A stretch of 48,572 nucleotides of DNA from an uncultured Planctomycetia bacterium (GCA_964415355.1 CAYPYS010000001.1:95161-143732), one strand, 5' to 3'; numbered from the stretch's first letter, positions 7,599 through 28,474 are shown. Program-made: numbers and translations. Notes: generated from the letters alone by a model not told the origin.

Positions 7599-7635
7599 TA
7601 AGTTTACACTTTAACATTGTTGAAATGTATACTTA
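7599..7635 (-). repeat. Palindromic intergenic repeat R5 (B, variant)
   Basis: TAAGTTTACACTTTAACATTGTTGAAATGTATACTTA. Exact reverse complement of R18. Contains the stop of the PilZ gene. Confidence 0.95.
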
Positions 7636-9642
7636 GTCGATAGGGAACATCAATGGATTGTAATTATGCATGGCGAAAATCGTGTATGCAGTGCCGGCGG
7701 CTGACCCTGTCCTCGAGCCCTTTGCTATCCTCCAGCCGTGACCAGTATCGACATTGTCCTGCGAGGCATAAGGAAGGCACCCCTCGCCCTGACCTACCCG
7801 AGAAGGACTGACGATCATCATTTTCTGAAGTTCGGAAAGATAAAAATCCGCCTTTATCTTATAATAATCTGCTTTTATGGTGTCTCCTATCGACTCGCTG
7901 TACCCTGCCATCATATTCAACGACACCACCATCTGCGCTGTCCACTCTGTTGAAACAACCCCGCCTCTTGCCAAGTTCGTATTTTTTCCAAAATCAAAAC
8001 CTGTTATCTTCAGATGCTCGCCGTCAGGCCTTTTATAAGTAACATTGACATGACAATTCTCCTCTGCGAAATCCATAATCTGTCCCGGATCCATGCCTGA
8101 CTCTTTGAGGGTCTTCGGCCCGATAGCCGCAATGGCCCACGCGAACGTATCTGTCGCAATAGTGGCATCGCCCTTCCCCCTATTAAGCCTATTTTCTTTA
8201 TTATTATAGGCGTGATCCTTGATCCATTTCAATGTCCTGCCCTGAGCTGACCTGTATTTATTGTCTTTTGTCACTTCGTACAGCATCCCAAAAAATGCAT
8301 AGGCATCCAGATTATGTTCGGTGCTGAACCATGAAAACTTTGGCCCGCCTCTTATCCCAAACTGCGCATCTTCTTCCTGCAATAAAATCAGCCAGTCAGC
8401 TATGTCTTTTGCGACCGAAAGATATTGCTCATCCTTAAACTTATCAGTGTATTGCAAGACAGCCAGGCCGATCCAAATATTGGGCCCGCTGTGAACAGCA
8501 TATTCCACAACCTTCCCGGTATACGCGTCATAACCATTGACATAGCCGCCTTTTACCTTTTCAGCCTTGTCCTTATAAAAATCCAATATCTTTTGCGCGT
8601 TCTCCTGGTCACCCATCAAGGTGAAACACTGGGCTGCCAGAGACTGGTCATAAGTAAACGCCCAATCCTCGATATCCTTATCGCCCTCGAAACTCACCAC
8701 CAGCCCTGTCAAAAAATTCTGGTGATTCTTGATCCATCTATACATGCTCAATACGCCTCTTTCCTCTATTTCTGTAAAAGAAGGCAGAAACTCTTTTAAG
8801 GCGTCCTTCGCTGAAATCCTTTTCTGCGAAAGCCTGGTTACTTTATCTTTCAAATCAGATGTCTCGTTCGACAAGATATTTACCTTTTTCAGAAGCCTTG
8901 CTTTTTCAAGAAGCGCTTCCTTGAGTCTTTTCTTAGTAACCCCTCTATCCTGTTCGAAGTATTCGAGTATCTTATCTTTTCTCTTGAGTTCAGCACTTAG
9001 CGCCTTCAGTTCATTGACTTTTCCCCAGTATTCCTTGATCATCTTCTCGTTCTCTAAAATCTCTTCTTCCAGGGCCTCACGCTCGCTGCCGGACTCGATA
9101 ATACTATGTTCGAGCTCAGACTTCTTCTGAGAGAGCTCCACGAGCTCACGGACCAGCCGGACATTTTCCCTTCTCAGTTTAAAATCAGAGCTATAAAAAA
9201 AGGCAAGGCCTGTTATTAGGAATAAAACCAGGATCGAAACGATCTTCGGGGTCAAAGATATCCTTCGAGCGTGAAAATAGATCTTTTTCCTGGCCCTTGG
9301 GTCTATCTCTAAAAATGAAAGGCCGATGAGATATTTATTAGGATAGCTTCCTTTTATTTTTTTATACCAGGCAATGCCGGCTATAGCCTTTGTTCCTCTA
9401 TGGCTTAGCGGGATATTAAGATTCAGTTCTAGTTTAGCCTTTTGTTCGGCTACGATGTCTTCAAATTTCTCTTCCAGATTATTGACCTCTAAGCAGATAC
9501 CGCCCTTGCCCACGTCCCTCGTAAAACCCTGCTTGACCTCGCCAATTACTTCTCCTGTTGCCTGGTCTAAAAATTGAAATTCGACAGGGAACACAGCATG
9601 CAGCCTGATATATTTTCTCTGTTCAATATTTTTATTTTTCAT
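7633..9642 (-). CDS. PilZ domain - TM helix - coiled coil - (alpha/alpha)6-like C-terminal domain protein
   Basis: N-terminal RxxxR (QRKYIR) and D.G..G (RDVGKGGI) PilZ motifs. TM segment SILVLFLITGLAFFY. Long heptad-like E/K-rich segment. The C-terminal 350 aa have the look of a six-hairpin glycosidase-like fold. Stop codon lies in repeat R5. Confidence 0.7.
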   Translation of the reverse strand: MKNKNIEQRKYIRLHAVFPVEFQFLDQATGEVIGEVKQGFTRDVGKGGICLEVNNLEEKFEDIVAEQKAKLELNLNIPLSHRGTKAIAGIAWYKKIKGSYPNKYLIGLSFLEIDPRARKKIYFHARRISLTPKIVSILVLFLITGLAFFYSSDFKLRRENVRLVRELVELSQKKSELEHSIIESGSEREALEEEILENEKMIKEYWGKVNELKALSAELKRKDKILEYFEQDRGVTKKRLKEALLEKARLLKKVNILSNETSDLKDKVTRLSQKRISAKDALKEFLPSFTEIEERGVLSMYRWIKNHQNFLTGLVVSFEGDKDIEDWAFTYDQSLAAQCFTLMGDQENAQKILDFYKDKAEKVKGGYVNGYDAYTGKVVEYAVHSGPNIWIGLAVLQYTDKFKDEQYLSVAKDIADWLILLQEEDAQFGIRGGPKFSWFSTEHNLDAYAFFGMLYEVTKDNKYRSAQGRTLKWIKDHAYNNKENRLNRGKGDATIATDTFAWAIAAIGPKTLKESGMDPGQIMDFAEENCHVNVTYKRPDGEHLKITGFDFGKNTNLARGGVVSTEWTAQMVVSLNMMAGYSESIGDTIKADYYKIKADFYLSELQKMMIVSPSRVGQGEGCLPYASQDNVDTGHGWRIAKGSRTGSAAGTAYTIFAMHNYNPLMFPID

Positions 9643-9651
9643 ACTAATAAA

Positions 9652-9680
9652 ATCTTAACAGCGCACAAACCCAATTGCAA
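9652..9680 (-). promoter_or_regulatory. sigma70-type promoter of the PilZ-domain gene
   Basis: TTGCAA-N17-TAAGAT. The -10 ends 9 nt before the ATG at 9642 and no SD is present. Confidence 0.65.
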
Positions 9681-9690
9681 GCAAAATCCT

Positions 9691-9727
9691 TAACTTTACA
9701 TTTCAACAACGTTAAAATGTAAAGTTA
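9691..9727 (+). repeat. Palindromic intergenic repeat R6 (A), between divergent promoters
   Basis: TAACTTTACATTTCAACAACGTTAAAATGTAAAGTTA. Confidence 0.95.
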
Positions 9728-9730
9728 GGC

Positions 9731-9759
9731 TTGCAATGGGGCAAGGGGTAAAGTAAAAT
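9731..9759 (+). promoter_or_regulatory. sigma70-type promoter of the pseudopilin operon
   Basis: TTGCAA-N17-TAAAAT. The -10 ends 7 nt before the ATG at 9767 and no SD is present. Confidence 0.65.
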
Positions 9760-9766
9760 ATAGAGC

Positions 9767-10177
9767 ATGAGGGCTGATTGCAAGAAAAATTCTGGTTTTA
9801 CACTGCTCGAGCTTATGATAGGCGTATGCATATTGATCGTGGGATTAGTGGCACTCATATCTGCCTATATCGGATGTTTTGCATTGAATGAAAGCGCGAG
9901 AAACCTTACTATTGCAACAAACCATGCCCAATGCGTAATGGAAGAGATCCGGGACTACAATATCCCATCCAATATCACGCAGGAAGACTGGACAGCTTGG
10001 GCGGCAGCAGATCTTCCGACTGGCGGCGGTTGCAATACCCTCGATACTGAATCGATTAATGTAACATATCCTTCGGGCACAGGCACGAACCCTTTAGAAA
10101 TCCTGGTTACAGTCAACTGGTCTGAAAAAAATAGATCGCGCAGCGTCCAGTTCTCTACGCTGCTGACAGAGCGATAA
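9767..10177 (+). CDS. Prepilin-type N-terminal cleavage/methylation domain protein (pseudopilin)
   Basis: KKNSG/FTLLELMIGVCILIVGL gives the canonical G-1, F+1, E+5 prepilin peptidase site. Confidence 0.8.
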   Translation: MRADCKKNSGFTLLELMIGVCILIVGLVALISAYIGCFALNESARNLTIATNHAQCVMEEIRDYNIPSNITQEDWTAWAAADLPTGGGCNTLDTESINVTYPSGTGTNPLEILVTVNWSEKNRSRSVQFSTLLTER

Positions 10178-10180
10178 GAG

Positions 10181-10627
10181 ATGAAAACCATTAAAGCCAT
10201 TACCTTAATCGAATTAATGATCGCGCTGGCCATATTCTCGATAATCCTCGGAGCTATCTATAGCGTATTGAATATGGGTCGGGCATCTTATTATACTGGC
10301 GATATCCAGATAGCAGTACAGCAAGAAGCGCGCAAGGCAATGGATAAGATGACCCGGGAAATACGGGAAGCCAGCTCTGTCAATCTCAGCGATGATTATC
10401 CTTTTGCAGTCGAGGCAAACCGCATAAAATACGAAGTCAATAGCGGACAGCTACAGAGAATTGTTCAGGGAGGATCGACCACTGTCTTGGCAAACGATGT
10501 TGGAAATGTTCAGTTTACTCTGATAGGCGGAGATATGGTGTATATAACATTAACAACGCAAAAAAATACTGTGCTCGGAAGAAGCTTGAGCGCTGATTTG
10601 ACCTCTCAAGTCAACCTGAGAAATTAA
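10181..10627 (+). CDS. Minor pseudopilin (PilW/GspJ-like)
   Basis: N-terminal AITLIELMIALAIFSII prepilin-like segment with E+5. Only a 3-nt gap to the upstream gene. Confidence 0.7.
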   Translation: MKTIKAITLIELMIALAIFSIILGAIYSVLNMGRASYYTGDIQIAVQQEARKAMDKMTREIREASSVNLSDDYPFAVEANRIKYEVNSGQLQRIVQGGSTTVLANDVGNVQFTLIGGDMVYITLTTQKNTVLGRSLSADLTSQVNLRN

Positions 10628-10631
10628 AACC

Positions 10632-11924
10632 ATGTTAAAGAACAAAAAAGGCATAGCCCTGATAACTGCATATATAGTCATCGCTGTCCTGACAGCGCTT
10701 GGAGCCGCGTTTATCTCCCGCAGCATAAGCGAGATGAGGGTTGCTGAACGGGCAAAAAATTCTACCCAGGCCTTCTATATTGCAGAGGCCGGCATAGACT
10801 ATGCTATTGAAGAAATGCGCAATGGCAATACGTCAGATCAGAATACTGCCACATTGAACGACAGCAACGCCACTCCCATAGGTTATTATAATGTAAACTG
10901 GCAAAGGATAGGGTCGTCTTCCACGTGGGAAATTATATCTGACGGCTTTGTAGGCGATACCCAAAGAAAGGTCACCGTGGAAGCGCTGCCAGATACATTT
11001 GCCAGATATCTGTATTTTACAGACGACGAACACTTCCGCTGGTGGTGGTGGAGAGTACCGGTATGGTTCGTAACAGGCGATAATCTGGGCGGCCCACTGC
11101 AGACAAATTCGCATTTTCATATATCTGGAGACCCTGCTTTCAGCGACCCTGACTATCATAGACCTGTTAAAAGCGTAGATGACTTCATTACATATATGAA
11201 TGGCGGATCGCCCATAAATAGCACAGCCACTTCTAATTCACCAAACGACAATCCTACATTCGAAGAGGGCCTTCAATTAGACTCAGACAGGGCCCCTTTT
11301 CCAAGCAGGGCACTCGACTTAGAAAACGCTGCTTCTCAACCAGAAGGACTTGCTCTGACTGGAGCAACGACAATAGTCCTAAACTCTGACGGAACAATGA
11401 ATGTTACTAACAACGACCGAGGGTGGTCGAATGAAAACATGTCATTGCCAGACAATGGCGCAATGTTTGTAGATAATGGCGATGTAACTATCTCAGGCAC
11501 TCTGAACGGCCAGCTCAGCATAGGGACAAGCGAAAATATAGTCGTATCTGACAATGTGACTTATAACACAGATCCTAGAGTCAATCCGACCTCCACGGAT
11601 ACCTTAGGCCTCATAGCTGAAAGAGATGTAGTGATAAGCCAGAGCGCCCCTCACGATATAGAGATCGATGCCAGCGTAATGGCGCTGGGCGAATCATTTA
11701 CAGTTGAAAACTATTGGCAGGGCCCGCCGAAAGGCACTATCAGCGTATATGGCGGGATCATTCAAGACGAACGCGGTCCCGTAGGTACCTTTAACCCCAG
11801 CACTAACAGCAAAGCCAGCGGCTACAGCAAAGATTATCAATACGATCCAAGATTGATGGCAAGTCCGCCTCCATTCTATCCTACTACAGGGGATTATGTT
11901 ATCAGCTCTTGGTCAGAGGAATAA
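10632..11924 (+). CDS. PilX-N-domain-like minor pilin/pilus tip protein
   Basis: N-terminal KKGIALITAYIVIAVLTALGAAFISRS...AFYIAEAGIDYAIEEM resembles the PilX N-terminal domain and lacks E+5. Large Asn/Ser/Thr-rich globular part. Confidence 0.55.
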   Translation: MLKNKKGIALITAYIVIAVLTALGAAFISRSISEMRVAERAKNSTQAFYIAEAGIDYAIEEMRNGNTSDQNTATLNDSNATPIGYYNVNWQRIGSSSTWEIISDGFVGDTQRKVTVEALPDTFARYLYFTDDEHFRWWWWRVPVWFVTGDNLGGPLQTNSHFHISGDPAFSDPDYHRPVKSVDDFITYMNGGSPINSTATSNSPNDNPTFEEGLQLDSDRAPFPSRALDLENAASQPEGLALTGATTIVLNSDGTMNVTNNDRGWSNENMSLPDNGAMFVDNGDVTISGTLNGQLSIGTSENIVVSDNVTYNTDPRVNPTSTDTLGLIAERDVVISQSAPHDIEIDASVMALGESFTVENYWQGPPKGTISVYGGIIQDERGPVGTFNPSTNSKASGYSKDYQYDPRLMASPPPFYPTTGDYVISSWSEE

Positions 11925-11927
11925 ACT

Positions 11928-12353
11928 ATGTCCAAAGAAAATAAAAAAATCTCTAAATTAAATATCGCTATCGGGCTCGGACTGATATTATTCGTGGTTA
12001 TACTGGTTATAAGCATAAAGGATAACAGTAAAAAATCCGATTCGCCAAAGACAAAAGAAGCAATAACAATGCAGCAGATAATCAAGCCAATGGTTAAAAA
12101 GATCGAAGAGCCTTTCCTTTTTGAAGATAAAAAAACTTCATCAAAAGAAGAGATTACCGAGAAAGTCGAAGACGAAGAACTCCCGGCAGTATCGGTAAAA
12201 GACCTCCCGTTGGACGAAATCACGGACAAAACAGAGCAAGGCAGAGAAAAATCGCCTGAAGAGATCGAAGCTCCTGCTACCCCATCCCTTCAAACACAAC
12301 CCAGCCTTGAAGACATGAAACTGATCAAGAAAAAAGGGTTTGTAATTTACTGA
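11928..12353 (+). CDS. Membrane-anchored acidic/lysine-rich hypothetical protein
   Basis: Single N-terminal TM (LNIAIGLGLILFVVILVISI) followed by a low-complexity E/K/P-rich tail. Last gene of the pseudopilin operon. Confidence 0.55.
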   Translation: MSKENKKISKLNIAIGLGLILFVVILVISIKDNSKKSDSPKTKEAITMQQIIKPMVKKIEEPFLFEDKKTSSKEEITEKVEDEELPAVSVKDLPLDEITDKTEQGREKSPEEIEAPATPSLQTQPSLEDMKLIKKKGFVIY

Positions 12354-12362
12354 TCTCGGCCC

Positions 12363-12391
12363 TTGACAACATTAGTTTTATGTGCTAATAT
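12363..12391 (+). promoter_or_regulatory. sigma70-type promoter of the marR-efflux operon
   Basis: TTGACA-N17-TAATAT. Confidence 0.7.
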
Positions 12392-12408
12392 TTAGTTAGG
12401 CTAACTAA
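12392..12408. promoter_or_regulatory. Perfect 8-1-8 palindrome at the predicted marR transcription start (candidate MarR operator)
   Basis: TTAGTTAG-G-CTAACTAA, immediately after the -10 hexamer. Confidence 0.55.
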
Positions 12409-12414
12409 TAATGC

Positions 12415-12450
12415 TAACTTTACATTTCAACAATGTTAAAAGTATACTTA
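12415..12450 (+). repeat. Palindromic intergenic repeat R7 (A, 36 nt, degenerate right arm), in the marR 5' UTR
   Basis: TAACTTTACATTTCAACAATGTTAAAAGTATACTTA. Confidence 0.9.
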
Positions 12451-12483
12451 GGCTAGCAAACCTTGACATACCAGGAGGTCTTT

Positions 12484-12918
12484 ATGGCAACCATTGATAA
12501 AATTACGCATGAAATATCCATCATGGTACCCAAGCTCATGAAGGGTGCCAAAAGCGACTTTCTCTCTAAAAGCAATATCACAAGCGCCCAGATGATAATG
12601 CTCGTATCGATCCATGATCATGGCCAATGTAAACTCAAAACCCTGGCCAGGGAACGCGGCATCTCCCCTCCTACTGCAACTGTGCTGATAGATAGACTCG
12701 TCAGGGCTGGCTATGTAAAAAGAGGGACAAGCCCGGAAGACAGGCGCGTAATCATGGCATCGCTTACAAAAAAAGGCGAAAAAAGCGTGCAGGATTTTCT
12801 AGATAACGTGCGAAACAGGTGGAAAAAAATCCTTACACACCTTACATCCAAAGAACAAGAGCAATATCTCAATATTCTCAAAAAAGTCGTATCTGTTTTA
12901 TCAGGGAAAGAAGGCTGA
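12484..12918 (+). CDS. MarR family transcriptional regulator
   Basis: Winged-helix segment LKTLARERGISPPTATVLIDRLVRAGYVKRGTSPEDRRV. ATG at 12484 is preferred over the track's TTG at 12463 because AGGAGG sits 6 nt upstream. Confidence 0.85.
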   Translation: MATIDKITHEISIMVPKLMKGAKSDFLSKSNITSAQMIMLVSIHDHGQCKLKTLARERGISPPTATVLIDRLVRAGYVKRGTSPEDRRVIMASLTKKGEKSVQDFLDNVRNRWKKILTHLTSKEQEQYLNILKKVVSVLSGKEG

Positions 12919-12923
12919 TACAA

Positions 12924-14390
12924 GTGAAGCGTCTTACAGTTCTATTTATAATAATAAGCATTGCGATCTCATCCCCTGCCCCTATATATTCCCAGGAAGC
13001 AGAAAAAACCAGCGCTCTATTTATCTCAGTAGACGACGTGAGACTGATCGCTGCAAATAATAATCTCGACATAAAACTTGCGAGATTGGATTCAAAGATA
13101 AAAGGCACTGATCTTAGTTATAAAGAAGCGGTGTTTGACACTATATTGAACGGAACCATAGACTACACTGACGACCAGAGAAAAACCGCCTCGTCTTTAT
13201 ATGGCTCAAGAACAATAACCAATAATTACAATGTCGGCATGGACAAAAAACTCAGGACAGGCACAGACGTAGAGATAGATTTTACTAATAAAAGAGAATG
13301 GTCTGATTCGACCTTTATTTCCACGAACCCTTACCATGAATCAGAAATGGCGATAAGCATCACCCAGCCAATAGCCAAGAACTTCTTCGGCCTGATCGAC
13401 CGCGGGAACATAGGGATAGTAAAACACGAAATAAAAAACGCTGAGCTCGACTCCTATATAAAGATCGAGGACGCCATAATATCCACTGAAAAGGCATATT
13501 GGAATCTGGTGCTTATTCGTGAACAGGTCAAGGCAAAAAAAGCTACATTTAAAAAATCCATTAGACTCTTTAATCAATACCGAAGAAAACTAAAGATAGG
13601 CCTCGTTGAAACAGGCGATGCACTGGCAGCCGAAGCAAATATGCACATAAGAGAAAGCGACCTCTTGCTGGTGTCAAATGATCTAAAAACAGCCGAGGAG
13701 CTTCTGAGACTAAAGTTGAATATTAAAAATGGAGTAAGGTTATATCCGAGCGATACGCTTTATGTCAATTACTTCGACGCAAGCCTAAAAAAAAGTCTAA
13801 TGACTGCCTTTAAAAATAGACGCGATTATGTGTCGAATAAAAACACCATAGAAGCCAAAAATATAAATCTTAAGATGAAATCAAATTCTCGCCTGCCTGA
13901 AATAGACCTGAAGGCGACCTTTGCGCAGAACGGCATCAGCGGGAAATATTACAGGGCGTTGAGCGACGTATTCGAAGACTCGAATCCCAAATATTATCTT
14001 GCCGTGGAGTTCGAGTACCCCCTTGAAAACAATCTGGCAAACAGCGAATATGAAAAGGCGACCCTGGAAAAAGCAAAGGCTATAATAAATCTGCAAAAAA
14101 CAGAAAGACAGATCATCCTGGATATAGACAATAGCATAAGAAACCTATATGTCAATAAAGCGAATATATCAAAAATGGAGCGCGCTGAGAATCTGCAAAA
14201 AGGAAAGCTTTTTCAGGAAGAGAAAAAATTTAAATATGGCAGGTCTGATTCTGACACTTTGATACGCTATCAAGGAGACCTCTTAAATGCAATACTCATG
14301 ACCAAAAAGGCGTATTTTGATTACAGGGTTTCTATCTTGGACGTACTGGCCGCCGAGGACAGTTTCCTGGAACACATCGGCCTGGAGTAA
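12924..14390 (+). CDS. TolC-like outer membrane efflux protein
   Basis: GTG start at 12924 gives the signal peptide VKRLTVLFIIISIAISSPAPIYSQ. Two-repeat OEP-like architecture. The track start at 12819 overlaps marR and is rejected. Confidence 0.8.
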   Translation: MKRLTVLFIIISIAISSPAPIYSQEAEKTSALFISVDDVRLIAANNNLDIKLARLDSKIKGTDLSYKEAVFDTILNGTIDYTDDQRKTASSLYGSRTITNNYNVGMDKKLRTGTDVEIDFTNKREWSDSTFISTNPYHESEMAISITQPIAKNFFGLIDRGNIGIVKHEIKNAELDSYIKIEDAIISTEKAYWNLVLIREQVKAKKATFKKSIRLFNQYRRKLKIGLVETGDALAAEANMHIRESDLLLVSNDLKTAEELLRLKLNIKNGVRLYPSDTLYVNYFDASLKKSLMTAFKNRRDYVSNKNTIEAKNINLKMKSNSRLPEIDLKATFAQNGISGKYYRALSDVFEDSNPKYYLAVEFEYPLENNLANSEYEKATLEKAKAIINLQKTERQIILDIDNSIRNLYVNKANISKMERAENLQKGKLFQEEKKFKYGRSDSDTLIRYQGDLLNAILMTKKAYFDYRVSILDVLAAEDSFLEHIGLE

Positions 14391-14407
14391 CTGCGGATTT
14401 AAGTGCC

Positions 14408-14459
14408 ATCCCCGCGAAAGCGGGGATCTAAAGCAGTGGATTCCCGTTTACACGGGAAT
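14408..14459. repeat. Pair of GC-rich stem-loops in the tolC-like/RND spacer (a different element from the main repeat)
   Basis: ATCCCCGC-GAAA-GCGGGGAT (14408-14427) and ATTCCCG-TTTACA-CGGGAAT (14440-14459). Confidence 0.8.
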
Positions 14460-14496
14460 GACATTACATCTTAAGCCAAACAAGGGGTAATATCTT

Positions 14497-17400: not shown

Positions 17401-17610
17401 GTTCTGACTACTATAACTACTGTAGGAGGCTTATCAACTGTCGCCTATGGCATAGGCGGGAAAGACCCTTTCCTGGTGCCTATGGCCCTTTCGATCTGCT
17501 GGGGATTGATCTTCGCGACCGCGCTCACGCTAGTAGTCATCCCGTGTATATATTCTATCGTGGACGACCTCACAATGAAAATAACAAAACACTCCACCGT
17601 CAAAGTCTAA
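14497..17610 (+). CDS. RND family efflux transporter permease (AcrB/AcrD/AcrF type)
   Basis: 1037 aa with 12-TM RND topology and conserved VDDGIIVAEN and NGIVVNDSIVLVDF segments. TAA stop forms the first 3 nt of repeat R8. Confidence 0.9.
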   Translation: MSLPRFSVNQSMFVNLCSVIIIIIGLIVVLGMNREIFPNVDFEIVSVTTAYPGATPLDIEKLITVPIEKELKEVDGLKEIKSSSAAGVSLLTIKIDPDEHDKKKVVNDIKSAVDRVKDLPKDITEDPVVTEVTSKQYPIIEVSLSGNMSEKKLQSYADALEDTLEDIAGVAKVDKSGYRDREIQVRVDPEKMHDRYVSFDEIEQALASRNISIPAGEINTETTEYNIRTTGEFSTAQEVENIIIRANDSGNWLRIKNVAEVKDSFKKEDIIYKTLGTRSINLIVMKKQSGDAISIVDEIKEVCGAFQKRSSDKLEISYVNDYSFFARRRLNVLKNNGWASLILITISMLLFLHSRVAFVTILGIPIAFFATFMVMSAMGITINLISMFGLIIVLGMLVDDGIIVAENVYRYMEQGMRPREAAVKGAEEVMRAVTTAVFTTIAAFSPLLFMTGIIGKFIRDIPTVLIVALLASLGEALIILPSHLADFVKIKYDAAGKPVNISKDIPWFKKLVRFYTKMVSSAIKRKYKVVAGFTLALILCAFFAFGVIKFILFPSAGINYFFIRGEAAIGTPLQKTNELILPIEEIVAELPSQEMDSFVTSVGSIQEDRHDPFAGQASHLVQTTVYLTPEQDRKRSVEKIIEEVRKKIKDAHGFAELRFDKPETGPPVGKAVEARIRGEDFETLDVIAKEYMDYLNTVEGTIDVTWDHKPGKEEIRIKVDNDKATLAGLSVAQIAKTVRAVFEGNIATKIKPVKAEEETDVTIMFPEKASKDMTVFKNILVRNSYGNLIPLEKVASIEKVPGTTTIHHLDGKRVVTASANVDTDKITSLKANKMLEKKFKDISERYMGYSVKYGGEQEETVDSLMSLLKAFFYAFLIIYLILSSAFKSIVQPLIIMLAIPFGLIGVVFAFLTHGMPLSFMAILGIVGLNGIVVNDSIVLVDFINKLRREGMSRPESIIKAGQMRIRPVVLTTITTVGGLSTVAYGIGGKDPFLVPMALSICWGLIFATALTLVVIPCIYSIVDDLTMKITKHSTVKV

Positions 17611-17644
17611 CTTTACATTTCAACAACGTTAAAATGTAAACTTA
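17608..17644 (+). repeat. Palindromic intergenic repeat R8 (A), between convergent genes
   Basis: TAACTTTACATTTCAACAACGTTAAAATGTAAACTTA. The first 3 nt are the TAA stop of the plus-strand RND gene. Confidence 0.95.
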
Positions 17645-17654
17645 GGCGAAGAAT

Positions 17655-18071: not shown

Positions 18072-18100
18072 AGATTAACATACCATTCTTTTCTTGTCAA
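18072..18100 (-). promoter_or_regulatory. sigma70-type promoter of the BFN nuclease gene
   Basis: TTGACA-N17-TAATCT. The -10 ends 9 nt before the ATG at 18062 and no SD is present. Confidence 0.65.
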
Positions 18101-18116
18101 CAACTTTGACCCTCCC

Positions 18117-18153
18117 TAACTTTACATTTCAACAACGTTAAAATGTAAAGTTA
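18117..18153 (+). repeat. Palindromic intergenic repeat R9 (A), between divergent promoters
   Basis: TAACTTTACATTTCAACAACGTTAAAATGTAAAGTTA, with flanks CCC/GGG extending the stem. Confidence 0.95.
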
Positions 18154-18157
18154 GGGG

Positions 18158-18186
18158 TTGCATATTGCAGCTCTGTATGGTATGCT
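18158..18186 (+). promoter_or_regulatory. sigma70-type promoter of the putative OMP gene
   Basis: TTGCAT-N17-TATGCT. The -10 ends 8 nt before the ATG at 18195. Confidence 0.55.
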
Positions 18187-18194
18187 TTGTGAAA

Positions 18195-19901: not shown

Positions 19902-19917
19902 AATCTACCTCCAAAGC

Positions 19918-19954
19918 TAACTTTACATTTCAACAACGTTAAAGTGTAAAGTTA
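19918..19954 (+). repeat. Palindromic intergenic repeat R10 (A)
   Basis: Identical to R4. The pilD stop is 15 nt away. Confidence 0.95.
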
Positions 19955-19969
19955 AGAAAAATCTTTGTT

Positions 19970-20743: not shown

Positions 20744-20755
20744 ATCATCCCGCCT

Positions 20756-20792
20756 TAACTTTACACTTTAACGTTGTTGAAGTGTAAAGTTA
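20756..20792 (-). repeat. Palindromic intergenic repeat R11 (B)
   Basis: TAACTTTACACTTTAACGTTGTTGAAGTGTAAAGTTA. aroE reads into it ([10 protein letters not shown]). Confidence 0.95.
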
Positions 20793-21612
20793 GCGCTTCT
20801 CTCATTGTTTCAATTGGGGCTTTCTGGTCGGTCCAGAACTCAAAGGCATGGACGCCCTGATACAAAAACATACCCAGGCCGCCTACTGCGCGGCCTTTTG
20901 CCTTTTTCACCAATTCTGTTTTTCTGTTATATACCACATCGTAGACAAACAAATCTTTGTGGAGCAACTCCTTATCCACAGGAGAATCATCGCCTTCTTT
21001 CATGCCAACAGGACTGGCATTGATCAATAATTGACAATCGGCTACAATGCTCGAAATTTCTTTTTTAGTGATAAATTGTAATTTTTCTTTGGCAATAGCG
21101 AATTTTTCAAAATGCTCTTTTGCTGATTTTACTGCTTTATCACTGGCTTCGTAGATGTATATTTTTTTGGGGTGCGGCAAGTCTTCGCATATCAACGCAG
21201 CGACAATCGCCCTGCCAGCACCACCGCAAGCAACAAGAAAAACATTTTTACCTTTAGGATCAAAACCCAAATCCTCTTTTAATGACCTGCGAAAACCCAG
21301 GACATCTGTATTCAAACAAAAGAATTCGCTTCCTTCTCTTTTTACTGTATTAATAGCTCCCGATAGCTGGACATAAGGCAAAACTTCCTTCGATCTCTTA
21401 TTTAAAATCTCTTTTGCTCTTACTTTATGCGGAACTGTAATATTAAAGCCTTTGACATTTTTTCTATTAAGAATAAAATCCTCGAGCTCTTCTGGTTTGA
21501 CTGCAAATTTTTTATATTCGGCCTTTATGCCCAGCTTTTTGAATGCGGCGTTGTGCATTGCAGGCGACAAGCTGTGTTTTATTGGCCAGCCTATTACTCC
21601 GTATATATCCAT
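20761..21612 (-). CDS. aroE: Shikimate dehydrogenase
   Basis: GVIGWPIKHSLSPAMHNAAF and NITVPHK motifs. The last 10 codons ([10 protein letters not shown]) plus the stop are encoded by repeat R11. Confidence 0.85.
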   Translation of the reverse strand: MDIYGVIGWPIKHSLSPAMHNAAFKKLGIKAEYKKFAVKPEELEDFILNRKNVKGFNITVPHKVRAKEILNKRSKEVLPYVQLSGAINTVKREGSEFFCLNTDVLGFRRSLKEDLGFDPKGKNVFLVACGGAGRAIVAALICEDLPHPKKIYIYEASDKAVKSAKEHFEKFAIAKEKLQFITKKEISSIVADCQLLINASPVGMKEGDDSPVDKELLHKDLFVYDVVYNRKTELVKKAKGRAVGGLGMFLYQGVHAFEFWTDQKAPIETMREALTLHFNNVKV

Positions 21613-21665
21613 CCCTGCTCCGTATAAATCGCAGGGGAGCTCAAGGCTCCCCTGTATCTAAATCT

Positions 21666-21700
21666 TAAGTTTACTTTTAACATTGTTGAAAGTAAACTTA
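21666..21700 (-). repeat. Palindromic intergenic repeat R12 (B, 35-nt variant with paired 1-nt deletions)
   Basis: TAAGTTTACTTTTAACATTGTTGAAAGTAAACTTA. Both arms are shortened by 1 nt and the stem is preserved. Contains the leuA stop. Confidence 0.9.
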
Positions 21701-23245
21701 GAGGTCGAGTTCTTTCTGCTTAGGCTTTGTTTTTCGCGATCGCGCGAAAAAGAGCCTGTTGGTTGCATTCACGTATGCCTTTGCGCTGGCCTCGATTATA
21801 TCAGTGGAGGCCCCTCTCCCTGAAACTTCTTTGCCCTTGCCAGGTTTTATCCTGACAGTGACCTCGCCCAAGGCGTCCTTACCCCTCGTTATAGACTTTA
21901 AAGAATAATCCAGGAGCGTACACTTGAGGCCTGTTATTTTGTCAATAGCCTTGTAGCAGGCATCCACAGGCCCATCACCGGTGGAAGATTTTTTCAGCAT
22001 CTTCGCGCCTTTTTTCAACGCTACTGCAGCGCGCGGGATGACCTTGCTTCCGCTTACTATATTAAGGTCTTCCAACCTATATGTTTCCGGTATAGAAATA
22101 ATTTCGTCCTCGACTATAGTCAAAAGATCCTCGTCAAATATCTCCTTCTTTTTATCAGCGAGGCTCTTGAAGCGCTCAAATGCCTTCAAAAGATCCTTCT
22201 GGTTAAGCTCGAATCCCAGCTTCTTAAGCCTCTCGGAAAACGCGTGTTTACCTGAATGTTTTCCGAGCACAAGCCGCGTCTCTCCGAAGCCCACGTCCTC
22301 TGGTTTCATAATCTCGTAGGTAGTGCGCTTCTTCAATATGCCGTCTTGATGCACGCCTGCTTCGTGGCTGAATGCGTTGCGGCCCACTATCGCCTTGTTC
22401 GGCTGCACCACAATGCCTGTGAGCTTGCTCACCAGGCGGCTCGCCTTATAGAGTTCCTCTGTATTTATCGACGTGGAAGCCTCAAAGATATCCTTGCGCG
22501 TATCCAGCGCCATCACGATCTCTTCCAGGGACGCATTACCTGCCCTCTCGCCAATGCCGTTGACAGTACATTCGACCTGCTCAGCGCCGTTCTCAATGGC
22601 TGCGAGGGAATTACTCACGCCAAGTCCAAGGTCATTGTGGCAATGCACACTAAGTATAGCCTTGCTTGAATTAGGGACTTTGTTTTTTATTGTATTTATT
22701 AGTGAACCAAATTCAATAGGGATCGCGTAACCTACTGTGTCAGGGATGTTCACTGTTTTCGCGCCTGCGGATATCACTGCTTCGACCACGCGGCACAGAA
22801 AATCCTTTTCAGAGCGCGAGGCATCCTCTGGCGAAAACTCGACATCATCACAAAACTTGCGTGCATATTCCACAGCCCACACAGCCTGCCGCAATATCTC
22901 ACTCTCTGCCTTTTTCAGTTTATACTGCATGTGGATTTTAGATGTTGCCAAAAACACATGGATGCGCGGCTTCTTTGCCTTTTTGACAGCGCGGGCGCAC
23001 GTCTCTATATCCTGCTTTGTAGCCCTTGCAAGACCACAAACGCTCGGTCCCTTGACCTCAGAAGCGACTTTACTGACTGCGTTGAAATCACCCTTCGAGG
23101 CAATGGGAAAACCCGCCTCGATCACGTCAACGCCTAGCCTTGCCAGCTGTTTCGCAATGTCAATCTTTGCCTTTATGTCGAGGCTCGCGCCAGGTGACTG
23201 TTCGCCATCTCTCAGAGTTGTATCGAAAATAATAATTCTTTTCAT
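21698..23245 (-). CDS. leuA: 2-isopropylmalate synthase (LeuA/CimA family)
   Basis: [16 protein letters not shown] and HCHNDLGL motifs. Start moved to the ATG at 23245 ([15 protein letters not shown] upstream) because the track's MLKCKVKDV extension is translated repeat R13. Stop codon lies in R12. Confidence 0.85.
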
Positions 23246-23253
23246 AACATCCT

Positions 23254-23290
23254 TAACTTTACATTTCAACAACGTTAAAGTGTAAAGTTA
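23254..23290 (+). repeat. Palindromic intergenic repeat R13 (A)
   Basis: Identical to R4. Contains the ilvC stop. The leuA ATG is 8 nt from the other end. Confidence 0.95.
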
Positions 23291-24277
23291 CTTTATCCAG
23301 TCCATCATGCCTCTTAATTTTTTGCCGATTACCTCTATTGGATGACTGTCGTCTTTTTTTCTTAATTCATTGAATGCAGGGCGGCCTTTTTCATTTTCCT
23401 TTATCCATTCCTTTGCGAACGCGCCTGACTGCACCTCTTTTAAGATCTTCTGCATCTCCTTGCGAGTCGCATCAGTTATGACCCTTTTACCTCTTGTTAC
23501 ATCGCCGTACTCTGCTGTGTCGGATACGCGTTTTCTCATTCCCTGGATACCTGTCTTGTATATTAAATCCGTAATGAGTTTTAATTCATGCAGGCACTCG
23601 AAATATGCTATCTCTGGTTGATATCCAGCATTGACAAGCGTCTCGAATCCTGCCTTCACGAGCTCGGTGACTCCGCCGCAAAGCACTGTCTGTTCCCCAA
23701 AAAGATCTGTCTCGGTTTCTTCTTTAAAAGTCGTCTCTATGACACCTGCCCTTGTGCCGCCTATGCCTTTTGCATAAGCAAGTCCTATCTTAGCAGCATT
23801 ACCAGAGGCGTCTTGAAAAACTGCCAATAAACACGGTACACCCTTTTTCTCTTCATACATCTGTCTTACGAGAGCGCCTGGTCCTTTTGGCGCTACCATG
23901 AAGACATCCACATCTTTCGGAGGCACGATCTGTTTAAAATGTATATTGAAGCCATGTGAAAACACAAGTGACTTGCCTTTTTTTAGATTCGGCTCAATTG
24001 CCTGCTTATAAACCTTTGCCTGCACATGATCCTGCGTCAATATCTGAATGACATCCGCTTGCTTTGCAGCGTCACTCGCCGAAACAGGCGCGAAACCGTC
24101 TTTCTGTGCAGTTTTGTAATTCTCAGTACCTTCTAATTCGCTTGCAATCACGTCCAGCCCGCTGTCCCGCAGATTCAAAGCCTGGCCGCGACCCTGAATA
24201 CCATAACCTATAATCGCTATCTTCTTTCCTTTTAACACATTCAAATCAGCGTCTTTGTCATAATACATCTTTGTCAT
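23288..24277 (-). CDS. ilvC: Ketol-acid reductoisomerase
   Basis: [21 protein letters not shown] and the class I KARI core. Stop codon lies in R13. Confidence 0.95.
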
Positions 24278-24315
24278 TACTGTTTTCCTCCTTATTATCG
24301 ATTTCGTCGAAAGCC

Positions 24316-24352
24316 TAACTTTACACTTTAACGTTGTTGAAATGTAAAGTTA
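24316..24352 (-). repeat. Palindromic intergenic repeat R14 (B)
   Basis: TAACTTTACACTTTAACGTTGTTGAAATGTAAAGTTA, the exact reverse complement of R4. Confidence 0.95.
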
Positions 24353-24366
24353 AGGTGGTGGGGTTT

Positions 24367-24840
24367 TTATTTGCGGCCCATGGCAATGCGGCCGGTCCTG
24401 ACGACCTCTGAAATCCCAAAAGGCTTCATGATCTCTATAAACGATTTTATCTTGTTCTGATCGCCCGTAACCTCTATGACTGCTGTCTCTTTCTTGACGT
24501 CGTCGATCTTTCCCTGGAACGTATCTGCTATCTGCAATATCTCTGAGCGGTTCTTGCTGTCGAGCTTGACCTTGACCATAACGAGTTCACGGTCAATAAA
24601 GTCCTCGCCCGTGAGATCGATCACCTTTATAACGTCGATAAGCCTGTTTAGTTGCTTCTTGACCTGCTCCAATGTCTTTTCATCGCCGTCAGCTACGATT
24701 GTCATTCTCGAGATACTAGGATCTTCGGTCTCGCCTACAGCAAGGGAATCGATGTTGAAACCTCTTGCGCTAAATAGACCTGATACGTGCGTTAGCACGC
24801 CAAAGTGATTCTCAACCAATACTGAAATTATTTTTTTCAT
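24367..24840 (-). CDS. ilvN: Acetolactate synthase small (regulatory) subunit
   Basis: ACT domain ISVLVENHFGVLTHVSGLFSARGFNIDSL. Confidence 0.9.
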   Translation of the reverse strand: MKKIISVLVENHFGVLTHVSGLFSARGFNIDSLAVGETEDPSISRMTIVADGDEKTLEQVKKQLNRLIDVIKVIDLTGEDFIDRELVMVKVKLDSKNRSEILQIADTFQGKIDDVKKETAVIEVTGDQNKIKSFIEIMKPFGISEVVRTGRIAMGRK

Positions 24841-24856
24841 TGCCTTTGCCTCTATC

Positions 24857-24893
24857 TAAGTTTACATTTTAACGTTGTTAAAGTGTAAACTTA
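24857..24893. repeat. Palindromic intergenic repeat R15 (chimeric arms), in tandem with R16
   Basis: TAAGTTTACATTTTAACGTTGTTAAAGTGTAAACTTA. B-type loop with an A-type right arm, giving a nearly perfect hairpin. Confidence 0.9.
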
Positions 24894-24899
24894 CGCGCC

Positions 24900-24936
24900 T
24901 AACTTTACATTTCAACAATGTTAAAATGTAAAGTTA
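24900..24936 (+). repeat. Palindromic intergenic repeat R16 (A)
   Basis: TAACTTTACATTTCAACAATGTTAAAATGTAAAGTTA. Contains the ilvB stop. 6 nt from R15. Confidence 0.95.
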
Positions 24937-26604
24937 GGCTAGGGCGCCGATCATTTTGTTGATAGCCTGGCCTGCCGGCACCATTGGAAACACATTTTCC
25001 TCTGGCTCGACTTGAAAATCTAAAATCACAGGCTTCTTTATGTCCAGCGCCTTTTTTATTGCTTTTTTCACTTCGCTTTTTTTCGTAACCCTTATCCCGC
25101 AGGCGCCGTACGCCTCTGCGAGTTTCACAAAATCAGGAGAATGCTCCAGCGTAGTGTGCGCATATCTCCTCTTATAAAAGAGCTCCTGCCACTGCCTGAC
25201 CATGCCGAGATAGCCATTGTTCAAAATCGCTATTTTTACCGGCAGCTTATTTGCAACAGCAGTCGTAAGCTCCTGGATATTCATCTGAATGCTTCCGTCA
25301 CCTGCAATGTCAAAGACAATTTTGTTCGGACAGCCGACTTGCGCGCCGATCGCTGCAGGAAAACCATAGCCCATTGTGCCGAGCCCGCCGCTCGAAATGA
25401 ACTGGCGCGGCTTTGTATAATTATAAAACTGCGCGGCCCACATCTGATTCTGTCCGACCTCGGTCGTAATGATGGCTTTGCCTTTTGTAAGCTCGCAGAT
25501 CTGCTCGACGACATACTGCGGTCGCAGCTTGGAATCGTTTTTGTAAGCAAGTGGGAACTTTTTCTTCCACTCCTCTATCTGCTTATGCCATTTGGCGATA
25601 TCAGGTTTTTTTATTTCTTTAACAAGGTCTTGCAAAATGCAATTGGCATCGCCCACTATCGGCACGTCGACTTTAACATTCTTACTTATCGCGCATGGGT
25701 CAATGTCAATATGTATGACCTTTGCATGCGGAGCAAACTCGTCGATCTTGCCTGTAACTCTATCGTCGAAGCGCGCGCCCACTGCTATTATAAGGTCTGA
25801 CTCCTGTATAGCGTGATTCGCGTACGCAGTTCCGTGCATGCCAAGCATACCGAGTGAAAGTTTATGCGTGGTCGGAAATGCACCCAGACCCATGAGCGTC
25901 ATAGTAACCGGAATCTCTGTCTTTTTGACAAATTCAGCGAGCTTCGCACTGGCACCTGAAATAATCACGCCACCGCCAACATAGAGCACAGGCCGTTTGC
26001 TGTGCGCAATGAGCCGCGCTGCCCTTTTTATCTGGCCGATATGGCCTTTGCATGTCGGCTTATAGCCTCTGATGTCTGCTTTTTCAGGATAATCAAAATT
26101 CGCTTCCTGTATTTGCATGTCTACTGGCAAGTCAACCGAAACCACGCCAGGCCTGCCTGTAGAGGCTATGTGAAACGCATTCTTTATGACAGTCGCTATA
26201 TTGTTAACATCTTTTACGAGATAGTTATGCTTTGAAATCGGCCGTGTTATGCCGCTGACATCAACTTCCTGAAAAGCGTCGTTCCCTATAAGCGAGGTCT
26301 TGACCTGGCCTGTAATAGCAACGACTGGCACAGAATCCATATTGGCTGTCGCGAGCCCTGTAACAAGGTTCGTCGCTCCAGGACCAGACGTAGCTAGGCA
26401 GACGCCGACCTTGCCGGTTGCGCGAGCGTAGCCGTCTGCTGCGTGGGCCGCACCCTGCTCGTGTCTCGTCAATATGAAATTTATGTCGCTGTCGTAAAGA
26501 ACGTCGAAAATCGGAAGCACCACGCCTCCAGGGTAACCAAAGATTACCTCAACGCCCTCTTTCTTAAGCGACTCTATTAATATCTTTGCGCCTGTCAATC
26601 TCAT
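24934..26604 (-). CDS. ilvB: Acetolactate synthase large subunit
   Basis: ThDP enzyme motifs GYPGG, GPGATN and GDGS..MN.QEL. Stop codon lies in R16. Confidence 0.9.
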
Positions 26605-26628
26605 AACCTTACCTCATATGTATGTACC

Positions 26629-26665
26629 TAACTTTACATTTCAACAACGTTAAAGTGTAAAGTTA
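26629..26665 (+). repeat. Palindromic intergenic repeat R17 (A)
   Basis: Identical to R4. The ilvD stop is 16 nt away. Confidence 0.95.
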
Positions 26666-26681
26666 GCGCCGCGAAAAATCC

Positions 26682-28334
26682 CTAATCCAACACTGCGCCT
26701 TTGCTCGCAGAGCTGACAAAACGGCTATACCTGGAAAGCCAGCCCTTTATCACCTTTGGCTTAGGCTGTCGCCACTTCTTAAGACGCTTCTTGATCTCAC
26801 TGGCTGAAACCTGCAGATTCATGCGTCGCTTCTTTATATCTATTTTGATCTTATCGTTGTTTTTAATAATAGCAATCGACCCGCCTTTTGCTGCTTCAGG
26901 CGCGACATGACCAATGCAGGGTCCGCGCGTGCCGCCTGAAAATCTGCCGTCGGTAATGAGCGCAACGTCATTGGACAGACCCATGCCCACGATAGCTGAT
27001 GTCGGTGAAAGCATCTCCCGCATACCAGGCCCGCCACTCGGGCCCTCGTATCGAATAACAACCACATCACCCTTTTTGACCTTGCCTTTTAATATAGCAG
27101 ACATTGACTCTTCTTCAGAATTAAAGACCTTTGCCTTGCCCGTAAACACCATTGTGTCTTCTTCGATCGCGCCCTGTTTCACAACCGCACCTTCAGGCGC
27201 AATATTCCCCTTTAAAATAGCAATGCCGCCTTCCTCTTTATATGGCTCGTCAAGATCACGTATCACTTCCTCGTCGTAGACCTTGCTCGACCGCGCGATC
27301 TGTTTTATCGACGGGCCGCTGACTGTCGGATTGTCGATTAGCCTCGCTTCCAGTCTCTTCAAAACCGCTGGTATTCCTCCCGCGACCTCAAGGTCCTCGA
27401 GAAAATATTCGCCGCTCGGCCTCAAGTCGCAGATCTTCGGCGTCTTGCGGCTGATCTGATCGAATGTAGCGAGCGGAAGCGCAACGCCTGCTTCTTTTGC
27501 AATCGCAATCAGGTGCAACACTGTATTTGTCGAGCCACCCAATGCCATGTCGACCATGATCGCGTTCAAAAACGCTTTTTTATTTAAAATACTGCGCGGC
27601 TTAATGTTCTTTTTGACTAATTCTACTGCGCGCTTGCCACTCTCATGAGCAATCCTCGCCTTTTTACTAGAGACTGCGAGTGATGTTGCGCAGCCAGCGA
27701 GCGACATGCCCATTGTCTCAGTCAAACAACTCATTGTATTTGCAGTGAAAAGTCCCTGGCACGAACCCGGGCCAGGACACGCATTGATCTCAAGCTGTTC
27801 CAAGTCATACTTGGAGATGTCGCCCTTCTTATATTGCCCCACTGCTTCAAACGTATCGCGAACGAGATCGAGTCGCCTGCCTTTGTAATGTCCGGTGAGC
27901 ATCGGCCCTGCCGTGACAACGATCGTCGGAATGTTAATCCTCGCGCACGCCATGAGCATGCCCGGCGTGATCTTGTCGCAGTTCGTCAAGAGCACAAGCC
28001 CATCCAGCGCATACGCGCCAGCCATTGTCTCGACCATGTCAGCGATGAGCTCCCTCGACGCCAGAGAATACTTCATGCCAAAGTGGCCCATTGCAATGCC
28101 GTCGCAGATACCTGGAATGCCGAAGACAAACGGTCGGCCACCACCTGCATAGACGCCATTCTCGACAGCGCGCTCCAGCGACCTCATATGTATATGGCCC
28201 GGCACAAGATCGGTAAAACTCGACGCAATACCAATAAAAGGCCTGCCCAAATCCTTTGGACACACCCCTGTCGCATACAAAAGCGCCCTGTTCCCGGCCT
28301 TTGAAACACCTTTTTTAATAATATCACTTTTCAT
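26682..28334 (-). CDS. ilvD: Dihydroxy-acid dehydratase
   Basis: [23 protein letters not shown] and full-length IlvD-like sequence. Confidence 0.95.
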
Positions 28335-28380
28335 AATCGGCTCCTAGGCTCTTATAAATATATAGATCCCTAATCTCGTT

Positions 28381-28409
28381 ATTATCGCATTTTCCGCAAA
28401 AAATTGCAA
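28381..28409 (-). promoter_or_regulatory. sigma70-type promoter (extended -10) of the ilvD-ilvB-ilvN-ilvC-leuA string
   Basis: TTGCAA-N17 (ending TGc)-GATAAT. An approximately 40-nt leader with AGGAG precedes the ilvD ATG. Confidence 0.65.
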
Positions 28410-28437
28410 CAGAATAACTTCACCCACAAACACCCCT

Positions 28438-28474
28438 TAAGTATACATTTCAACAATGTTAAAGTGTAAACTTA
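28438..28474 (+). repeat. Palindromic intergenic repeat R18 (A, variant)
   Basis: TAAGTATACATTTCAACAATGTTAAAGTGTAAACTTA. Exact reverse complement of R5. The greA stop is 4 nt away. Confidence 0.95.

Follow-up and report, generated by a model that had tools for sequence, protein, structure and literature searches.

The subject of this study is a stretch of 48,572 nucleotides (nt) from the assembly GCA_964415355.1 (CAYPYS010000001.1:95161-143732), deposited as an uncultured Planctomycetia bacterium and here called the window, and a 37-nt imperfect palindrome, TAACTTTACATTTCAACAACGTTAAAGTGTAAAGTTA, that occurs in it 31 times. The window is part of the housekeeping chromosome of a Candidatus Omnitrophota bacterium. 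We think that the repeat is probably a miniature hairpin element similar to the repetitive extragenic palindromes (REPs), which has multiplied in this lineage until about two thirds of the window's gene junctions are occupied, and which has been homogenised within each genome. That the unit has proliferated in the lineage, that its copies have been made alike and that its structure is constrained we regard as established. A preliminary description, made from the sequence alone, had proposed copy-and-paste spread. The spread itself is borne out by empty orthologous junctions, by differences in fill state and by the presence of subfamilies, but the mode of copying is not singled out, and the homogenisation had been overlooked.

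The repeat and its fold

A mismatch scan and a covariance-model scan with the filters off agree on the 31 copies, which are 35-37 nt long, and found nothing else in the window; 100 shuffles of the window gave no copy at all. The density is one copy per 1.6 kb. The junction occurrences are single in 30 of 31 cases, the other being an inverted pair at 24857/24900 with 6 nt between its members. The unit folds into a 17-bp stem with a 3-nt loop, in which T11 stands opposite G27 and C14 opposite A24. As RNA, with two flanking bases added at either end, it folds at about -17 to -18 kcal/mol; the range of folding energies is -15 to -21 kcal/mol, with z-scores of -5 to -8.

Thirteen copies are identical to what we call the master, nine in one orientation and four in the other, and the remaining ones lie 1-5 positions away from it or have a one-base loss, so that the variants form a star-like set. 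The asymmetry of the two arms is kept in most copies, as had been stated from the start: both mismatches are found in 19 of the 29 full-length copies, and C14/A24 in 28 of them. On the plus strand 19 copies are in orientation A, in agreement with the first count, and 12 are in orientation B; the 11 counted earlier had left one copy out, which makes the total 31 and not 30. Relative to the sense of the mRNA the ratio is about 15:14, and orientation is thus not tied to transcription, which upholds what was claimed about the polarity.

The most common variants, G27A and T11C, both give a perfect stem, and may be recurrent templated corrections. A paired change of the stem base to TAAG...CTTA is found in R5, R12, R15 and R18 (copies are numbered along the window and listed below), and the same change restricted to one arm in R1, R7, R8, R27 and R30; the copies named in the preliminary description were the right ones in both cases. 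A Fisher test for the pairing of arm changes gives p=0.014, for copies that are not independent of each other. R12 (21666-21700) is 35 nt long and has, as was noted before, lost one base from each arm, and it still folds perfectly with one G.U pair. R5 (7599-7635) is indeed the exact reverse complement of R18 (28438-28474).

Gain of the element in the lineage

The gene block tsaE-alr-greA-ilvDBNC-leuA-aroE has conserved synteny in five further loci (related loci are given L numbers). The junctions in L085 and L090, and largely also in L083 and L084, are overlapping or 1-4 nt long, with distances in such relatives of -20 for tsaE-tsaD, -4 for tsaD-alr, 1 for ilvB-ilvN and -4 for ilvC-leuA. The ilv-leu junctions of L083 are 17-92 nt long and occupied by other hairpins. 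With the family model no copy was found in the syntenic loci L083, L085 and L090, and L084 gave two strong and two weak matches. As the overlapping state is common to three lineages it is ancestral, and the element was gained in the clade of the window, with a loss of four residues from the C-terminal end of TsaE.

The fill state also differs among close relatives. The comparison for presence and absence that had been suggested thus speaks for mobility, and the finding that was to have refuted the spread, all copies fixed at orthologous sites, was not made. The junction between the prepilin peptidase gene and aroC has a copy in the window and reads tagATTatg in L082; the one between ilvN and ilvC has a copy in the window and in L082 and none in L089; and the one between the genes for OEP (outer-membrane factor) and AcrB has a copy in L039 and none in the window. 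A copy in L089 is one mismatch away from R18 and sits at a different junction. Subfamilies, for which a test had been suggested, do exist, and one of them occupies non-orthologous sites in different genomes. At the ilvB-ilvN junction three genomes share the downstream spacer and differ in hairpin content: one has a tandem pair, another a composite whose truncated arms enclose a foreign palindrome, and the third a GTATAC-type copy.

Other palindromes were seen in the same loci. Two places in L082 (5750-5855 and 9324-9410) have composite or nested elements, in which arms of the main element, truncated symmetrically, enclose a palindrome of a second family (AAAAATAGGGACAGACACCTATTTTT and its complement); the truncated arms are TAAGTTTACC..GGTAAACTTA at one place and TAAGTTC..GAACTTA at the other. 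The element-free L083 has other junction repeats (1560-1616 and 13590-13700), with a GTAG-containing REP-like unit, TTGTAGGGGCGTCATTTATGGCGCCC, at two junctions.

The flanks of the copies hint at a duplicated target sequence, a comparison that is confounded by the similarity of ribosome-binding sites, and with the invariant TA..TA ends a target duplication is indistinguishable from element sequence. A minimal miniature inverted-repeat transposable element (MITE) has to be considered here, i.e. terminal inverted repeats moved by a DDE transposase with TA target duplication in the style of IS630/Tc1-mariner, where ACTTTACA...TGTAAAGT would be the actual element, with the TA of TAA or TAG stop codons as its insertion site. 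The TA at both ends is what such an element would have, insertion at a stop-codon TA would regenerate TAA, and the composite copies of L082 share arms and differ in their interiors. IS630 prefers CTAG as its target, and the flanks in the window, C-TAAC...GTTA-G, resemble it; the flanks do however vary by genome (T..A and others). We consider this kind of MITE quite improbable, since the paired arm changes and the symmetric one-base losses (R12, and GTATAC in both arms in L089) fit recognition of a hairpin and not of two duplex ends that are bound separately, a transposase with matching ends was found neither in the window nor in the related loci, and 37 nt is below the usual size of a MITE.

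Homogenisation of resident copies

The sister species (L082/L039) has 82-84% nucleotide identity to the window. Nine junctions have a 37-nt copy in both genomes, and the orientation is the same at eight of the nine (p ~0.02), which indicates that these copies were inherited. The differences between them recur from one junction to the other: six junctions have C4G together with G34C, eight have T11C or the mirror change A27G, and seven have a change in the loop. Substitutions that repeat themselves in this way point to a homogenisation of resident copies of the gene-conversion type. Each genome therefore has a master of its own toward which the resident copies have been converted, something that independent point mutation cannot achieve. 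The asymmetry of the arms is a feature of the master copy of this genome, since in the master of the sister species C14/A24 is the one mismatch of the two that is retained.

We hypothesize that the copies are kept alike by gene conversion over short patches and by templated correction inside the quasi-palindrome, and that the paired arm changes arise in the same way; this would explain the one-arm intermediates and the frequent stem-perfecting variants as well. It is also conceivable that a copy could be inverted where it stands, by recombination between its perfect 10-nt arms. The identity of R5 and R18 had been taken as the sign of an inverted duplication, but this is not secured, because homogenisation of resident copies could suffice to make the two identical, and their identity alone is thus no proof of a new insertion.

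Breadth and covariation of the hairpin

One genome per species was scanned for the outer arms with a spacer of 15-19 nt, and this arrangement was found in many Omnitrophota assemblies, with the outer 10-nt arms conserved and the inner stem variable. Each genome has its own inner stem, for instance CCCGCC/GGCGGG, TCCGTGCC/GGCACGGA or TTTAGTC/GACTAAA, and the length of the element varies from 35 to 39 nt between genomes. Several of the matching assemblies are labelled Planctomycetia, and one of these has 97% IlvC identity to the window. In an alignment of 33 distinct members 91.6% of the cells pair, 12 of the 18 pairs have double-sided changes and 64 cells are compensatory. None of 500 shuffles reaches the observed covariation score, and slid registers pair at 22-42% only. 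The covariation that was suggested as a test is thus strong across genomes, and it argues that the hairpin is the selected object and that the base of the stem is read by sequence.

Matches in a few unrelated taxa have a non-palindromic interior and look like chance, and a single viral match, likewise with a non-palindromic interior, was taken as chance too and not as viral carriage. Genuine family members with palindromic interiors were found on short contigs in L036, L060 (a Woesearchaeota assembly) and L054 (a Desulfonatronovibrio assembly), and their presence in bins of unrelated taxa could be due to mis-binning or to horizontal presence. A literature search gave no description of the motif or of intergenic palindromes in Omnitrophota.

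Position at gene junctions

All 31 copies lie at gene junctions of the window, including both divergent junctions and one convergent junction. The copies, and a single unpaired arm, are as follows.

R1, 295..331, plus strand: orientation A; CTTA on the right arm only; the stop codon of a VTT-domain gene (329..1012, minus strand) is formed by its last three bases
R2, 2323..2359, plus strand: orientation A; 8 nt past the stop of a methyltransferase gene
R3, 3202..3238, minus strand: orientation B; TAA stop of a PhoH/PIN gene
R4, 4560..4596, plus strand: master, orientation A; TAA stop of the phosphofructokinase gene
R5, 7599..7635, minus strand: TAAG/GTATAC/CTTA variant; stop of a gene for 669 amino acids (aa)
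R6, 9691..9727, plus strand: orientation A; divergent junction with start codons at distances of 48 and 39 nt
R7, 12415..12450, plus strand: degenerate, 36 nt; right arm GTATACTTA; after the pilin operon
R8, 17608..17644, plus strand: orientation A; convergent junction; an AcrB-family efflux pump gene has its stop in the first three bases
R9, 18117..18153, plus strand: orientation A; divergent junction
R10, 19918..19954, plus strand: master; prepilin peptidase to aroC junction, empty (tagATTatg) in the sister species
R11, 20756..20792, minus strand: orientation B; aroE takes its last nine residues and its stop from this copy
R12, 21666..21700, minus strand: 35 nt, symmetric loss of one base per arm, TAAG..CTTA; stop of leuA
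R13, 23254..23290, plus strand: master; stop of ilvC; orientation flipped relative to the sister species
R14, 24316..24352, minus strand: master, orientation B; 14 nt past the ilvN stop; junction empty in L089
R15, 24857..24893, minus strand: TAAG..CTTA variant; second of the tandem pair, 6 nt from R16
R16, 24900..24936, plus strand: orientation A; stop of ilvB
R17, 26629..26665, plus strand: master; 16 nt past the ilvD stop
R18, 28438..28474, plus strand: R5 variant; 4 nt past the greA stop, upstream of the conserved ilvD promoter
R19, 30095..30131, plus strand: stop of a TsaD-family gene (name given as tsaB or tsaD)
R20, 30825..30861, plus strand: master; stop of tsaE, product 4 residues shorter than in copy-free relatives
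R21, 31276..31312, minus strand: stop of the AIRS/thiL gene; one base off the ortholog in the sister species
R22, 33223..33259, plus strand: master; stop of a DUF362 gene
R23, 34381..34417, plus strand: master; stop of an Rce1-like gene
R24, 35471..35507, minus strand: master, orientation B; tatD ends at a TAA inside the repeat
R25, 37429..37465, plus strand: master; stop of metG
R26, 39016..39052, minus strand: master, orientation B; stop of a PSP1-domain gene
R27, 40841..40877, plus strand: TAAG on the left arm only; stop of tmk
R28, 41506..41542, minus strand: stop of cysS
R29, 43456..43492, plus strand: master; stop of ispD
R30, 44187..44223, minus strand: TAAG on one arm only; stop of a PIN-domain gene
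R31, 47574..47610, minus strand: master, orientation B; 20 nt past the upstream gene's stop and directly before the next gene's ribosome-binding site
Solitary right arm TGTAAAGTTA, 45264..45273, no strand: the MlaD gene (45271..45999, minus strand) has its TTA as stop codon

The solitary arm is probably the remnant of a copy, and apart from this one unpaired arms are absent.

Of the 27 copies that come after the 3' end of a gene, 19 provide the stop codon of that gene with their terminal TAA (nt 1-3 of the repeat); with 18 of 27, the count before the coordinates of R12 were corrected, a binomial test against a generous expectation of 1/3 gives p=4e-4. In two further copies, at aroE and tatD, the frame ends at an internal TAA and the last residues are encoded by the repeat. 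TAA at repeat positions 1, 14 or 23, and 30 covers all three frames in both orientations and on both strands. The other end of the repeat is typically 8-16 nt before the next start codon, with the ribosome-binding site in between.

The repeat also leaves its mark on annotation, as gene callers have been led by it to annotate C-termini that it encodes. Three protein ends are altered, those of TsaE (30859-31266), AroE (20761-21612) and TatD (35483-36316), all on the minus strand; TsaE has 4 C-terminal residues fewer than in relatives, and the end of AroE is read in different frames by the window and L082. In L039 one 37-nt copy (3846-3882) is the TAA stop of both of two convergent genes, one for an AcrB-family pump and one for a BFN-domain protein, with an intergenic distance of 31 nt. 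Unrelated palindromes in L084 (Ca. Gorgyraea atricola; 7788-7830 and 3587-3640) also start at the TAA stop of the upstream gene (at ilvD taaAGTAGACAAAACAGAC...GTCTACTTTA), and to start at a stop codon may be a general habit of junction hairpins in the phylum.

Mobile element or host signal

In our model the unit would be recognised as a folded single strand, of DNA or RNA, by an enzyme acting in trans, which would read the conserved 10-bp base of the stem (TAACTTTACA/TGTAAAGTTA) and leave the tip of the hairpin to drift between genomes. The leading candidate, by analogy with the REPs, would be a Y1/HUH transposase of the kind called REP-associated tyrosine transposase (RAYT). Copies would survive where they are harmless: with TAA in all frames on both strands, any incoming reading frame is closed, and folding would put the stop beside the ribosome-binding site of the next gene, so that operon expression and translational coupling would be preserved.

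The precise order of stop codon, hairpin and ribosome-binding site 8-16 nt before the start codon is also what one would expect if the host itself used the hairpin as a gene-boundary signal, i.e. as a stabiliser of 3' ends, a weak or factor-dependent terminator, a processing site of RNase III type or a device for translational coupling. The hairpin would then be transcribed in the polycistronic mRNA or extruded in DNA, and a conserved host protein would read the invariant stem base. Such a role would agree with the conservation of the outer arms across many Omnitrophota assemblies with a variable tip, with the stable RNA hairpins, and with a sequence that stays near a genome-wide consensus despite 82% genome identity. 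Copies also immediately precede conserved promoters (greA-ilvD; L038/L075), a place in which one would look for a terminator, and those in the ilv-leu operon must be co-transcribed, because the genes of the relatives overlap there. On the other hand, the same operons work without a copy in L083, L085 and L090, which makes the element dispensable, and some long junctions of the window have no copy. Copies are oriented at random relative to transcription, and one G.T and one A.C mismatch are present on each strand, which leaves no RNA-strand signature; the copies lack a U-tract and are not flagged by terminator and promoter scans. Point selection at hundreds of sites also cannot yield the parallel double change C4G+G34C. 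We therefore find it unlikely that the repeat is primarily a host signal. A function of the mRNA hairpin for the host is possible as an added role, weakened by the dispensability in relatives and the missing strand signature.

Even less likely, the hairpin would be more than a selfish unit and serve as a gene-punctuation system of the whole Omnitrophota lineage, in which a conserved host factor binds the invariant 10-bp stem base and 37 nt hold, on either strand, a stop codon, a signal for transcript end or processing and a spacer for re-initiation, spread and homogenised by a dedicated and undescribed conversion mechanism.

A number of other identities were tried and rejected. The copies are no intrinsic (rho-independent) terminators, as the stem has 19-27% G+C, no T run follows and the scan does not report them. 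They contain a TTTACA that is like a -35 box, but no acceptable -10 box at 16-18 nt, and a sigma-70 promoter is also at odds with the varying element length of 35-39 nt between genomes, with the copy in a convergent junction and with the scan, which does not report the copies. A canonical promoter, TTGCAA-17-TGnGATAAT, does exist upstream of ilvD (28381-28409, minus strand), distinct from the repeat, which in the window lies between the greA stop and this promoter. It is conserved in all relatives (greA-ilvD/surA gaps of L082-L085), so these bacteria use ordinary promoters. No Rfam family matched the copies at the gathering threshold, and sub-threshold, microRNA-like matches were seen on the tandem pair only. 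In a CRISPR array the 'spacers' would be whole genes, and DNA uptake sequences can be dismissed since solitary arms are essentially absent.

Search for a mobilising enzyme

Several observations weigh against a REP-like element. The REP tag, GTAG or CGTC, is absent, the copies are mostly single and do not form the REP doublets known as REPINs, and the 10-nt arms are conserved across many species more strongly than is typical of REPs, which could mean a host function. Mobility at present is not seen, all metagenome contigs of the window strain being identical, and the junction comparisons gave no clean pair of empty and filled sites with exact insertion boundaries or a target duplication. A mobilising enzyme was not found in the search, which covered the window, where there is none, and related loci. 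When E. coli RayT was compared with 1,838 open reading frames, one Y1 transposase came out, the only one in about 650 kb of related loci. This gene (L064, ~3830-4300; Pfam Y1_Tnp, E=2.8e-17) belongs to an Omnitrophota assembly and is flanked by a different inverted repeat. Among 27 distant metagenomic relatives of this transposase none has the element, and no gene recurs beside the copies across assemblies. Nor was an autonomous insertion sequence with the same terminal repeats found, or a transposase between distant arms, in the window and L082-L085.

The inverted repeat that flanks the L064 transposase is 30 nt long, AGGGACGGTTCTYAGCCCAATCCCAGACCTGTC, and has no relation to the main element, and in its core, GGGACAG, it is similar to the second palindrome family of L082.

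Comparison with known systems

The closest analogy is REP/RAYT. The REPs and bacterial interspersed mosaic elements (BIMEs) of Enterobacteria and Pseudomonas, and the REPIN-RAYT systems, are likewise imperfect palindromes of 20-40 nt with many extragenic copies in both orientations. They have a genome-specific consensus with a master and variants, termini that are able to supply stops, and dispersed copies that are homogenised, for which gene conversion was reportedly proposed by Higgins and colleagues in 1988. Classical REPs have a density of roughly one per 3-10 kb, and the present repeat, with one per 1.6 kb, is much denser. It also differs in having TAAC...GTTA at both ends in every genome and no GTAG or CGTC, in being mostly single units, in having no RAYT gene that was found flanked by it, in being present in divergent junctions and in the conservation of its stem base across species. 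A GTAG or CGTC tetranucleotide at one end of the stem is a criterion for REPs, although untagged REP-like families exist, and REP termini often supply the stop codon of flanking open reading frames (PMC3733652). Within the REP-like kind, the density, the stops in all frames, the conserved stem base and the clear concerted evolution are notable features that set this repeat apart.

Correia elements of Neisseria (NEMIS/CREE) and other bacterial MITEs are also small, non-autonomous palindromic repeats at gene boundaries with TA at both ends. Correia elements are 100-155 bp long with 26-bp inverted repeats, a functional promoter and sites for integration host factor (IHF), and are co-transcribed with their neighbours as hairpins able to affect expression. 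The present repeat is instead essentially one hairpin of 37 nt, with compensatory arm changes that point to recognition of structure.

The attC sites of integrons are hairpins of single-stranded DNA between consecutive genes, with conserved AAC/GTT triplets at the base and a variable tip, and are read in the folded state by a tyrosine recombinase. Their R''/R' consensus is RYYYAAC/GTTRRRY. The termini and flanks of our repeat, YYTAAC...GTTARR (CCTAAC...GTTAGG in the window consensus), fit this as a pattern match only, and the layout of a 6-7 bp box, a 6-bp spacer, a 7-bp box and a 3-nt loop resembles a minimal folded attC. The inner boxes are however not conserved in other genomes, and the mixed orientation (19:12), the absence of bulged extrahelical bases, the absence of an integrase in the window and the fixed order of the flanking core housekeeping genes, whose synteny is conserved across relatives without any cassette shuffling, together exclude an integron. 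We give an attC-like origin hardly any credence.

Rickettsia palindromic elements, which are 100-150 bp long and inserted in frame inside genes, are another example of palindromic repeats that become coding, as in the last residues of AroE and TatD here, although our repeat touches 3' ends only and closes the frame. Inverted pairs of DNA uptake sequences in Neisseria and Haemophilus, which occur after genes at about one per kilobase, have in common with it a conserved 10-mer shared by related species. Uptake sequences are, in contrast, also found single and inside genes, and in the present case the spacer is itself palindromic.

Omnitrophota are uncultured, ultra-small bacteria with compact genomes, and a hairpin has here pried apart ancestrally overlapping genes at most junctions with the operons unbroken. 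Taken as a REP-like element, the repeat would be a natural example of a selfish palindrome made harmless, by stops in all frames on both strands and by a fold that keeps the stop near the next ribosome-binding site. The comparison of the two species also gives a clear example of dispersed short repeats that have evolved in concert. The conserved stem base should make it possible to find the recognising enzyme by relating copy number to gene content in complete Omnitrophota genomes.

The window and its genes

The closest named homologues of IlvC are from Candidatus Omnitrophota. About 94% of the window is coding, and the minus strand holds most of the genes. Housekeeping genes identified with Pfam are leuA, ilvB/N/C/D, metG, cysS, aroC/E, greA, alr, tsaE, a TsaD-family gene, ispD/F, tmk, holB and pfk, together with an AcrB/OEP efflux pair, pilins and an Mla transporter, and the Pfam scans gave no transposase or integrase among the window genes. 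This gene content rules out that the window is of phage origin.

Contigs of several metagenomes have 99.97-100% identity to the window, which represents one clonal strain. The 24 metagenome contigs with an identical IlvD or IlvN are all of this same strain, with at least 99.9% identity, and are as such uninformative on polymorphism at strain level. Two short contigs (<1 kb), L098 and L099, end inside or beside R14, and L088 has a run of N after ilvC next to a copy (1105-1204); the repeat is probably a cause of fragmentation when these genomes are assembled from short reads.

A c-di-GMP-I riboswitch (Rfam RF01051, 81.6 bits) is located at 6628-6712 on the minus strand, upstream of a gene for 141 aa (6172..6597), and its junction of 139 nt is among the few long ones in the window without a copy of the repeat.

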